From Candidatus Woesearchaeota archaeon (GTDB lineage: Archaea > Nanobdellota > Nanobdellia > Woesearchaeales > ARS49), in NCBI GenBank assembly GCA_016188265.1, contig JACPID010000003.1, positions 1-64,000 of the forward strand: a DNA stretch of 64,000 nt, in the 5' to 3' direction. Each line of letters begins with the position of its first letter. Positions within the stretch are counted from its first letter, which is position 1. Made by a program: the position numbers. Shown here piece after piece: positions 30,001 to 33,000 of the stretch.

Positions 30001-33000
30001 AATACATTATTTCCACGCTCAAGCGCATCTTTTGACAATACTCTTGGAGCTTCTTCGAGAACAATGGAAATTACAGGCAAAGCTGACAATGTTGCCTGAT
30101 CTGCTTTTTTAGCACTAGCTAATAATTCATGAGCTATAATACTTCCTAGAAAAACTTCAATTCTTTCACTAGCTAAAGAAGTATCAATAACAACTATTGT
30201 ACTTTCGTAAAGAGCTCTAATAACATCACTAACAAAAGAGTGGCCAGAAGTTGTACTAAAAATTCCTTTGCTAATAATAAAGCCATCTTGAATAGATAAA
30301 TTAAGAAGGCTTAGCAATTGCCTTTTAATAACTGCAAGCGTTGATTCTCCAAAAGAAACAGAAATAGGCTTATTTAAAATAATTGCTTCAATCCAGGAAT
30401 CAGCATATTCACGATAATATGATTGAAGCGCTTGATATTGAGGATCACTCCACTCAATAACTCCTTGAAAATGTTTTGGCTTGATTAAAGAAATATTAAT
30501 TCGCAATGTACGCGAACCTGGCGGAGGATTTGCAAAAGTGTAATATATTAGTTTGCTTGAAAATGCATGATCTTTTAAGCCGATTGAAGATCTTCCATAA
30601 TATTCATCATGAGGATCTAAAATAAGAATTCCTGCATAATTTTGAGCTAATAAATTCCACATCAAGTGCTTCATTAAAACACTTTTTCCACGGCCAGTAG
30701 TTCCACTAATTAATACATGATGACTGAGAACATTTCTGCCATCAAGAATTATTTCAACAGGTATTGTTTTTTTTCCACTTCTTAAAAATCCAAGAAAAAA
30801 AGGGTTTATAGACGGCTGAAGAAAAGAAACATCTTGTTTTGTTATTGATCTTACTGGTGAAAAAATTTTTGGCAATGTTTTGCAAGCTGCTGCTTTATTT
30901 CCTTTAATAAAAAGAATATTTTTTACATTAGCTAACTGGTACGAACGAAGTTTTTCATCCATTATTTGCAAATCTGTATCTTCTTCTAATTTTAATCCTG
31001 AAACAAGTTCAAGTTGCTGTTGCGATAATTGAGAACCATATGCAAGATCAAATACTTGCAAAAGAATCTTATTTTCTTTATCTTCAGTTATTAATAATTC
31101 ACCTAATTCAAAATATTCACTATTTTTTTGGCGAACACAAATATTTCCAAATTGACCTGAAATAACCAACCCTCTCATTTATAGAAATAAGTTAACAAAA
31201 GATTTATATAACTATCTTCCACAATATATCACAAAAGCAGGTGATAATATGTTAAGATTACTTTGGAGTCCTGGCAGCCTTATTGAAGATTTAAGAGGAA
31301 AACCAAGTTTTGGACTTGCATTTTTCACTTTAGTAATAAGCACACTCATCATATGCGGAAGTATTGTTTTATTTAGTTTTGTATCTCAGGATTCAAAAAT
31401 TCTGCTTAAAACAACAGGCACAATATTTGTAGCTGTTATTGTTATAGTCTTTTACTTGGCAGCATTATTAACTGCTATTATGAAAACACTTTCTGGAAAT
31501 GGTTCTTACACTGCAGGCCTTTCAAGCCTTTCATTACCAATGATGCCATTATCTGTTGCATTACTATTAATTGTTTTAGCAAACATTGTTAATATTACAA
31601 GCCAAACAATAATTGCAATATACACTATGTGGATAATCACTGGCCTATCAACTCCTTTTTTATTAGTGTTAAGCATATCTACAATATTTCGCGCACTAAA
31701 AGAATTATTTGAAACAAATATGATCACAGCATTATTAGGCTTTTTTCTTTTAAAAATAACAGTCATTGCACTATTGCTAGCAAGCACAACTCAATACTGG
31801 CTGCCACTATTAATTATAGCAGAGTAATAATTATTATAAACTAGTTTAATAAACATAATAACAATGGAAGACAATTTTCTAAAAAAAAAAGAAGTGCAAA
31901 AAGCTCTTAAAGAAGCAAAGAAACTTGAAAAACATATTATTCCTCAAGAAGAGATTGTAAAAACTTATGAAGAAGGCCTTGAACAATTAAATAAGTTAAA
32001 AGAATTTTTAAAACCAGCATGGTTTGTTAAAGATACTGACAGCAAGAAAAAAAAAGATAGCACCTAATTAAACACTATGCACCACTCAACAGTTATTACC
32101 GTCGAGTCTTAGTAATAATACCGACGAAAAGTTTATAAAATAGAAGTCCTAACATTATTAGATTCGATGCGTTCTCGTCGAAATAATAAAAAAAAAATCG
32201 GAGGAGTGACTAATGGCACAAAAAGTAACAAAAGTAGGTGTAAAAAAAGAAAAAGGATATCTCTACTTTGTAGATAAAAAAGGAAATGTAGCTCGTGCAA
32301 AAATGGCACGCGGTAAAAAAAGAGGCGGCAAAACAGAAGTTGTTGCAAAAGCAGGTGTAAAAAAAGAAAAAGGATATCTCTACTTTGTAGATAAACAAGG
32401 AGATGTTTCAAAAGCTAAAATGGCACGCGGCGGAAGATAAACCCGCCTTTGCTTATTAAATAAGGAGGTTATGCTTCATGGGAATTGCCATCTTTGGCGG
32501 ATAATACAGTCACAAATAAATCTGATAGTACTATATATTTTTAGAAAACTATTTATACTTGGCATTGCCTGTTCAAGTTATAAGAGGGGTTTTTAGATGG
32601 TAATGAAGTTTTTTAAAAGAATCTTTGGAAGATTATGGAAAGACCTATTTAAAGGCAAAAAAGAACTGAAATTAGGACTGTACGGCCCGCCAAATTCTGG
32701 TAAAACCACTTTAGCAAATAGAATATGCTTAGATTGGCTTGGCGAAGAAATGGGCAGTGTAAGTAGCATTGCACATGAAACACGAGAAATACAAATAAAA
32801 GAACAAATTTCTATTCGTTCAAAAGATGGAAAAGAATTATTTTTTAATCTAGTAGACACTCCGGGAATTGCAACAAGAATTGATTATGAAGATTTTTTAA
32901 AAGCAGGATTAACTGAAAATAAAGCAAAAAAAAGAGCAAAAGAAGCAACAAAAGGAATAATTGATGCAATTAAATGGCTTGATGACATGGATGCTGTTGT

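Follow-up and report, generated by a model that had tools for sequence, protein, structure and literature searches.

The two-repeat protein and its predicted structure

The stretch of DNA analysed here (hereafter the window; 64,000 nucleotides) carries on its forward strand, at 32213-32440, a gene encoding a basic protein of 75 residues that comprises two repeats and is predicted to be all beta, an assignment based on its translation, its homologues and a structural model. Repeat 1 (residues 2-35; 32216-32317) and repeat 2 (residues 41-74; 32333-32434) lie on the same strand and are identical at 24 of 33 positions. The reading frame and the net charge of +17 given in the initial annotation are both correct: the protein contains 18 lysine, five arginine, three aspartate and three glutamate residues, and its pI is 10.4. 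The codon adaptation of the gene ranks 111th of 967 in this genome, whose codon bias is too weak to be informative about abundance.

The gene is real and ultra-conserved, and its product has no recognised family or fold. As noted previously, no Pfam or NCBIfam entry matches near the cut-off. A 44-row profile searched against the PDB sequences gave nothing significant, the closest result being a weak likeness to bL36 (E 0.29); PHROGs returned just the unnamed phrog_9154 (E ~1e-5), and the Atlas search returned unnamed clusters only. As eight of 120 listed homologues bear a precomputed PF27482.1 annotation, a newer Pfam release may already include the family. AlphaFold2, supplied with a 92-row alignment, predicts six strands and zero helices, with pLDDT values of 84.8-92.4 over the five models. 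The all-beta reading made earlier is thus retained, and the model quality is revised upward, from a pLDDT of 83 in one of five runs to a mean of 92.4 in the best model. The top structural match of this model has a Z of 2.7 and an rmsd of 4.9 over 52 aligned residues, and Foldseek found zero matches at E 0.001 in PDB and BFVD. These failed searches with a predicted model do not prove a new fold. A structural case for sequence reading is absent, because the model resembles no solved DNA-binding domain.

Distribution of the family

The family is not restricted to the Woesearchaeales, as had been proposed, and its range is far wider. The initial protein query matched in 153 of the 201 phylum genomes sampled. 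Searching the 48 misses again with a one-repeat profile recovered two more (G102 and G184), and reading of weak matches revealed interrupted genes in another four (G062, G086, G090 and G180), giving 159 of 201. The family was not found in 42 near-complete phylum genomes, and a back-translated pattern added none. A GTDB scan confirmed at least 577 stretches among at least 599 candidates, and the best 80 matches, at 63-80% identity, include titles from Omnitrophota, Marinimicrobia, Planctomycetia, Elusimicrobia and Endomicrobium. The earlier mention of homologues in some bacteria is borne out in samples of two bacterial phyla, with carriers among 19 of 61 genomes in a sample centred on an Omnitrophota genome and 15 of 41 in one centred on a Marinimicrobia genome. 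In IMG/VR, 15 viral loci encode the family, and cultured phage and plasmid records gave no match. The repeat itself is matched by 1,504 clusters at 50% identity.

Homologues with a single repeat also exist and have 42-58 residues. Tails resembling histone H1 (at least 15 residues, 44-81% lysine plus arginine) occur on both archaeal and bacterial homologues, so that their presence is confirmed; their frequency, previously described as "often", amounts to 20 of the 108 homologues with two repeats, or roughly a fifth. HIT-domain fusions recur, and fusions as a clue to function were rejected, as the partners are diverse and include HIT, nitroreductase, DoxX and ASCH domains among others. The gene neighbourhood is variable across homologues. 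A functional link to the downstream oapABC operon was likewise rejected as a general feature, with an oapA-like GTPase gene adjoining at most 18 of 140 loci.

Predicted introns in one-repeat homologues

Five one-repeat homologues, those of G062, G086, G090, G180 and G184, contain hairpin inserts of some 28-33 nt that interrupt the gene. The inserts occupy two fixed codon positions, and two of the homologues hold both. The G062 insert forms a canonical bulge-helix-bulge, with a 4-bp centre and an 8-bp exon helix; that of G184 adopts a relaxed version of this structure, and excision of either restores the frame. The G090 insert folds similarly but falls below the bulge-helix-bulge filter, and those of G086 and G180 were read by eye. 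Judging from these sequences, the interruptions are predicted to be introns of the tRNA type. A precedent for such an intron in a protein gene is that of cbf5 (PMC2738675).

A multi-copy operator at the promoter of the gene

The promoter and Shine-Dalgarno signals reported earlier are all present: a BRE-like GAAAAG, a TATA box TTTATAAA at 32132-32139 that is conserved in homologues, and a Shine-Dalgarno site GGAGGAGTGA at 32200-32209, the last two on the forward strand. The palindrome noted at the start site exists as well. It is not a single start-site hairpin, since three copies are found here, and two of these precede the TATA box. The operator is a 15-bp element, TTT(A/C)TCG-W-CGA(T/G)AAA, that occurs in multiple copies and in either orientation. 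In a matrix scan, copy 1 (32095-32109; score 8.9) has its centre some 30 bp before the TATA box, copy 2 (32117-32131; score 9.7) overlaps the BRE-like purine run, and copy 3 (32171-32185; score 13.6), the palindrome already described, lies just past the expected transcription start.

Enrichment of this element was assessed with counts, since the genomes are related rather than independent and p-values would be overstated. In a 4-mer test of positions -130 to -16 against the upstream regions of neighbouring genes, from which ten duplicate or N-containing loci were dropped, GACG/CGTC was the top 4-mer both in archaea (64 of 75, compared with 21 of 106 for the neighbouring genes) and in bacteria (21 of 35, compared with 14 of 54). 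A symmetric 15-bp matrix was trained solely on 28 gyrB sites, and a score of at least 8 was counted as a pass. Among promoters of the gene itself, 54 of 75 from archaea passed, against a background of 7 of 106, as did 13 of 35 from bacteria, against 4 of 54, and none of nine from viral copies. An out-of-sample set was provided by 80 new metagenomic loci, 77 of them usable. Among these, the TATA-type promoters passed in 20 of 32 cases versus 0 of 27 downstream windows, and the non-TATA promoters in 5 of 45 versus 6 of 43 controls.

Upstream of the TATA box, and hence untranscribed, lie 53 of the 86 own-promoter sites, with clusters at -8, -17, -29 and -38 relative to it; the phasing reaches only p ~0.025 when each position is counted once. 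Read on the coding strand, the central base is A in 56 cases and T in 39, and the flanks are conserved to 7 bp on each side. Variants with a changed core, TAGACGA and TAGAGGA, recur in own promoters. The upstream placement and the free orientation fit a protein site in double-stranded DNA rather than an RNA hairpin.

Sites at gyrase promoters

A genome scan with the first matrix revealed near-perfect palindromes just before gyrB (contig C11) and gyrA (contig C13), two genes identified by Pfam and located on separate contigs. Each site (C11:11987-12001 for gyrB, C13:35209-35223 for gyrA) is centred 30 nt before the start codon, and the two rank first and third in a scan of the genome. The gyrB site of this genome is among the 28 training sites of the later matrix, and the gyrA site is not.

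Gyrase is present in 190 of the 201 phylum genomes and does not separate carriers of the family from non-carriers. We read 90 of the 190 gyrB loci, namely the 30 best matches, the gene-negative genomes with listed positions, and further gene-positive genomes across families. In this set the core site lies upstream of gyrB in 25 of the 68 genomes with the gene and in 2 of the 22 without it (25 of 64 versus 2 of 24 before the intron-split genomes were reassigned). The two gene-negative exceptions, G187 and G164, are each the only member of their family to lack the gene, which 19 of 20 and 4 of 5 genomes, respectively, carry; the remaining 43 of the 68 gene-positive gyrB promoters have no core site. 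Upstream of gyrA, the site was found in 6 of 15 gene-positive versus 0 of 15 gene-negative genomes; the gene-positive ones had been selected by the presence of a gyrB site, and three of them have gyrA immediately after gyrB. The gyrB sites cluster at -30, +31, +41, +51 to +54 and +61.

Genome-wide counts and the bacterial lineages

Copies of the strict pattern have a median of four per phylum genome in 155 gene-positive genomes versus zero in 44 gene-negative ones, while a reversed control pattern gives three and two, respectively. In this count G086 and G180 were still scored negative, and G062 and G090 were omitted; G086, with eight sites, was later shown to carry an intron-split gene. The strict site is absent in 28 of the 155 gene-positive genomes.

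Bacterial support for the link between the family and the operator is patchy. Compared with dinucleotide shuffles, the core YCGWCGR is found six times versus 0.3 in Marinimicrobia promoters and four times versus 0.9 in the Omnitrophota group; non-TATA promoters give 11 versus 4.6 when GC-rich and two versus 0.7 when of low GC content, and Elusimicrobia promoters give none. At threshold, the gyrB-only matrix passes 0 of 5 Elusimicrobia promoters and 2 of 13 in the Omnitrophota group. Several Marinimicrobia and Omnitrophota sites adjoin the -35 box or fill the spacer between -35 and -10, the latter being the case in the Marinimicrobia loci L081 and L102. No gyrase link was seen in bacteria, where gyrB sits inside an operon and the core occurs upstream of it in 1 of 13 versus 1 of 11 genomes in one comparison and in 1 of 13 versus 1 of 13 in the other. 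Upstream of dnaA the counts are 4 of 13 versus 2 of 14 (27 of 30 loci readable). In a Marinimicrobia genome with 48 strict sites, 12 of the 15 sites read were located in coding DNA, and the bacterial genome-wide counts were set aside because most of the sites read were of this kind. An EM motif derived from bacterial promoters alone was rejected, as it collapsed to GC content. The absence of a gyrB signal and the mostly coding counts indicate that self-regulation is supported in some bacterial lineages only.

The X-Y locus and candidate binders

After the gyrB and gyrA sites and two unexplained intergenic sites, the strongest sites of the genome lie in the window at 2653-2667 and 2975-2989. 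The first (score 16.6) falls within gene Y, as does a weaker site at 2526-2540 (score 13.0). Gene Y (2263-2880, minus strand), a candidate target, encodes a coiled-coil protein of 205 residues with a probable C-terminal winged helix, a reading made without Pfam support. The second candidate target, gene X (1640-2158, minus strand), encodes a coiled-coil plus HTH protein in which HTH_11 scores below the cut-off; a homologue of X passes HTH_36 and weakly matches DnaD_N. The site at 2975-2989 (score 16.5) lies in a repeat-rich intergenic region upstream of Y and X, centred between inverted CTGGGAATGA arms (2964-2974 and 2992-3002). Strong sites are found at 5 of 8 X-Y loci of gene-positive genomes not chosen by site, versus 2 of 18 of gene-negative genomes, and the positive loci often hold four to seven operator copies. 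In G026, G187 and G195, a strong site is again found amid GGGA/TCCC repeats. By inference, the repeat-rich locus may be a replication origin.

Other proteins encoded near these sites were compared as binders, namely X, Y and a conserved gene Z that is often directly upstream of the 75-residue gene. None of the three tracks the site. Y is present in 18 of 42 archaea that lack the gene, in 7 of 10 that carry it, and in 0 of 10 bacterial carriers. X, searched for in archaea only, occurs in six negative genomes whose loci have no site. Z was found in 4 of 4 archaea without the gene and in 0 of 5 bacteria with it. Among the four proteins, only the 75-residue protein tracks the site. This is guilt by association, and the binder could be another family.

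Micro-proteins of H1-like composition

The two H1-like micro-ORFs reported earlier, one of 29 residues and charge +18 (C9:5685-5774) and one of 41 residues and charge +23 (C17:12031-12156), both on the minus strand, hold up: of the ORFs preceded by a Shine-Dalgarno site among 732 basic ORFs of the genome, they have the highest charge density. The TATA-like box, the GAGGTG and one terminator-like hairpin of the 29-residue ORF were found again. Conservation of this gene, which the initial annotation had left aside, extends to a syntenic counterpart of 17 residues in one of five relatives. Six other fetched loci carry similar stand-alone, K/R-rich micro-genes, and in two of them, L265 and L313, an operator immediately precedes the TATA box of the micro-gene. 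NCBIfam gave no match to either micro-ORF, and both are too short for the globular winged-helix domain of histone H1. They are probably genuine genes of a widespread class. The suggestion that they form a chromatin set with the 75-residue protein, histone and Alba finds no operator link in this genome: the best matrix scores are 4.9 and 7.5 for the micro-genes and -0.9 for the Alba-like gene, none of them a strong operator, and no core site was found at the only histone gene.

Proposed function and alternative explanations

Taken together, we consider it reasonably probable that the 75-residue protein binds the operator and acts as a Fis/IHF-like, pseudo-dimeric, self-regulating topology regulator, the binding being deduced from the co-occurrence of gene and site. 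The DNA-binding, chromatin-type role proposed in the initial annotation is supported by the charge, the tails in archaea and bacteria, the stand-alone gene with its strong expression signals, and the operator that tracks the gene. These data favour a site-specific regulator, whose candidate regulon can be defined as its own gene, gyrB, gyrA and the origin-like locus, over mere bulk packaging. A two-repeat pseudo-dimer suits a palindromic site, and the two near-identical beta repeats could thus constitute a built-in pseudo-dimer reading the odd 15-bp palindrome, in which case the natural one-repeat forms would be expected to dimerise. The protein would occupy several copies around its own BRE/TATA and start site, resulting in self-regulation, probably repression. 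It would also bind one strong copy at each of the gyrB and gyrA promoters and several at the repeat-rich possible origin. Supercoiling, and perhaps replication, would thereby be coupled to the level of the protein itself, and the optional lysine-rich tail may add non-specific affinity or compaction.

The best-surviving alternative, which we regard as unlikely though worth serious attention, is that the protein is an abundant, non-specific chromatin protein and that the operator, while real, is bound by some other regulator of a topology regulon that includes the gene and gyrase. The high charge, the H1-like tails, the strong promoter and the Shine-Dalgarno site would all fit such a protein, as would the many carriers, and the viral copies, without sites. 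Against this, the site is almost gone where the gene is missing even though gyrase is retained, and some of the gene's promoters in bacteria still carry it. Moreover, the three nearby HTH-type candidates for the other regulator occur without the site, and Y and Z were not found in the bacteria examined.

Far less probable is that the CG-W-CG core is a methylation target or a supercoil-sensing DNA shape, with A-tracts around CG, and that the protein is a SeqA-like reader or unrelated. The Hpy99I restriction-modification system is known to target CGWCG, this genome is poor in CpG (o/e 0.49), and the sites lie at gyrase promoters and in an origin-like region. Nevertheless, the conserved flanks extend beyond what a methylase needs, the recurrent variants change the core itself, and an intrinsic DNA shape should not disappear from gene-negative lineages. 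It is equally improbable that the protein binds RNA, either on the ribosome or in an mRNA leader, with the palindrome as a 5' leader hairpin: it is small, basic and conserved like ribosomal proteins, it shows the weak likeness to bL36, HIT fusions recur and the leader here can fold (-6.3 kcal/mol), but most own-promoter sites are untranscribed and free in orientation, the centre of the palindrome is one base, the gene lies outside ribosomal operons among variable, non-ribosomal neighbours, it was not found in the 42 near-complete genomes mentioned above, and the bL36 likeness is too weak for membership of that family.

Returning to the preferred reading of a site-specific regulator, a broader version of it can be formulated, which we put forward tentatively and consider rather doubtful as a whole. 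The family would be a new beta-fold DNA-binding family of DPANN archaea and several bacterial phyla, which in Woesearchaeota and related orders would act as the master regulator of both DNA topology and replication; it would repress itself, set gyrase, bind the centre of the origin beside X-Y, and have its synthesis gated by tRNA-type introns in some lineages. On this version the protein would also be a dedicated archaeal gyrase regulator, of which no report was found in the literature searched, and its site would serve as a marker for origins in these archaeal genomes.

Should the regulator reading be correct, the protein would be an unrecognised controller of DNA supercoiling in ultra-small archaea and not only a DNA-packing protein. 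A new fold would join the DNA-binding repertoire, a family of more than 1,500 clusters at 50% identity would gain a function, and the protein would represent a regulator that retains its operator across archaeal and bacterial promoter types. It would also direct attention to a candidate replication origin in these archaea. The literature searched, of which subscription papers mostly formed no part, contains no description of the family, the operator, the regulon or the introns. According to PMC9348778, gyrase came to DPANN archaea by horizontal transfer, and its role in archaeal supercoiling is poorly understood. With one named protein, one 15-bp site and a short list of targets, archaeal gyrase control becomes testable.

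Comparison with known systems

One protein comparable by description is a candidate nucleoid-associated protein of Methanomassiliicoccales (WP_019177984.1/AGI86273.1), which is presented in PMC7613761 as a basic, lysine-rich, single-gene protein of 70-74 residues with a predicted novel fold, a pI of 9.6-9.9, and homologues in Sphingomonadales and Rhodobacterales. Compared by description only, it resembles the 75-residue protein in these general traits and differs from it in pI (9.6-9.9 for WP_019177984.1 versus 10.4) and in the taxa of its homologues (PMC7613761). Like nucleoid-associated proteins, the 75-residue protein is small, basic and encoded by a single-gene transcription unit.

The chlamydial proteins Hc1 and Hc2 and the C-terminal tails of histone H1 are K/A-rich and of low complexity; their likeness to the optional tails and the micro-ORFs is compositional only. 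Cren7, Sul7d, CC1 and MC1 are small beta archaeal chromatin proteins that are monomeric and largely non-specific. They share size, charge, beta-rich character and stand-alone genes with the 75-residue protein, which in contrast has an associated palindromic site. None of the four appears in the Pfam results or among the PDB-sequence matches of the 44-row profile, so that membership by sequence is not indicated. Nor are they among the structural rows listed with Z of at least 2.

IHF and HU are architectural dimers with beta ribbons. At oriC, IHF occupies a specific site flanked by initiator boxes, and some HU variants carry lysine-rich, H1-like tails. The operator between the inverted repeats at 2964-3002 of the window is reminiscent of the former arrangement. 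In contrast, the confident model of the 75-residue protein is free of helix and therefore has no helical core, and neither a Bac_DNA_binding match in Pfam nor any other sequence or fold match links it to HU or IHF. Fis is an all-helical HTH dimer that is limited to proteobacteria and recognises a degenerate G-N13-C site. The likeness to Fis lies in the small size, the basic character, the symmetric 15-bp site, the autoregulation through multiple sites, the gyrA and gyrB promoters and oriC, with binding predicted in the present case. The 75-residue protein differs in being all beta and internally duplicated, in the CG-W-CG core of its putative site, in the lack of an HTH_8 match in Pfam, and in its occurrence in archaea, bacteria and viruses. 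Fis and IHF are enteric bacterial proteins that tie supercoiling and replication to their own level, and the family described here most likely works like one or the other without belonging to either.

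Genomic context of the small gene and of gene Z

The gene encoding the 75-aa two-repeat basic protein (32213-32440, + strand) is followed immediately on its 3' side by the oapA-oapB-oapC operon (32597-34001), which encodes a GTPase, a PF09846 protein and a PF09845 protein. This adjacency is seen in only part of the homologue loci. The gene Z family, comprising conserved unannotated proteins of ~155 aa (L013:919-1389; C4:89393-89830 in this genome, G000), precedes the small gene at 18 of the 140 loci, lying on its upstream side, and is present in all five archaea tested. The records L072-L122, which are titled 'Methanosarcinales', were counted as archaea only. 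As the neighbours and promoters of several of these loci are Woesearchaeota-like, the titles may be placeholders.

Variants of the repeat protein and basic micro-ORFs

Fusion proteins containing the two-repeat unit are encoded at L031:1928-2878, L034:1896-2906 and L035:1479-1823, all on the minus strand. In two genomes of one genus, the unit follows a HIT domain, and in other fusions it is preceded N-terminally by a Cys-containing, zinc-ribbon-like stretch. Five one-repeat homologues, L183 (G184), L184 (G090), L185 (G062), L187 (G086) and L188 (G180), exhibit inserts of ~28-33 nt, which form hairpins resembling a bulge-helix-bulge and are located at two fixed positions, with two inserts each in the G086 and G180 homologues. 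Protein searches miss these interrupted genes.

L050, L186, L265, L276, L277 and L313 contain stand-alone micro-ORFs that are rich in K/R, encode 19-78 aa and have SD sites; in L050 (Omnitrophota), one such micro-ORF lies directly 3' of the two-repeat gene. Read by eye, C21:~12440-12545 (+) of G000 appears to hold a short, very basic ORF, with a TATA-like box ahead and an operator-like match at its start.

Operator copies, gyrase genes and the X-Y region

Two very strong intergenic copies of the operator, the predicted 15-bp palindromic DNA site, are present in G000 at C10:39423-39437 (score 19.7) and C18:7954-7968 (score 17.4), neither having an obvious target gene. Both gyrase subunits of this genome (gyrB, C11:8485-11964; gyrA, C13:31392-35186) carry inteins, that of GyrA including a LAGLIDADG domain. 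An 18-nt stretch, ACTACACGCTACCTACTT, is common to intergenic DNA at ~3264-3281 of the window and C22:~56940, each copy being located within ~300 bp of an operator match.

The coiled-coil/HTH-type genes X and Y and the adjoining repeat-rich intergenic region span 1640-3420. The intergenic part contains five (C/T)TGGGAA copies within 110 bp and numerous inverted repeats, and X and Y are found as a pair elsewhere in the phylum as well. The repeat-rich intergenic region is a candidate replication origin, with X and Y as candidate initiators.
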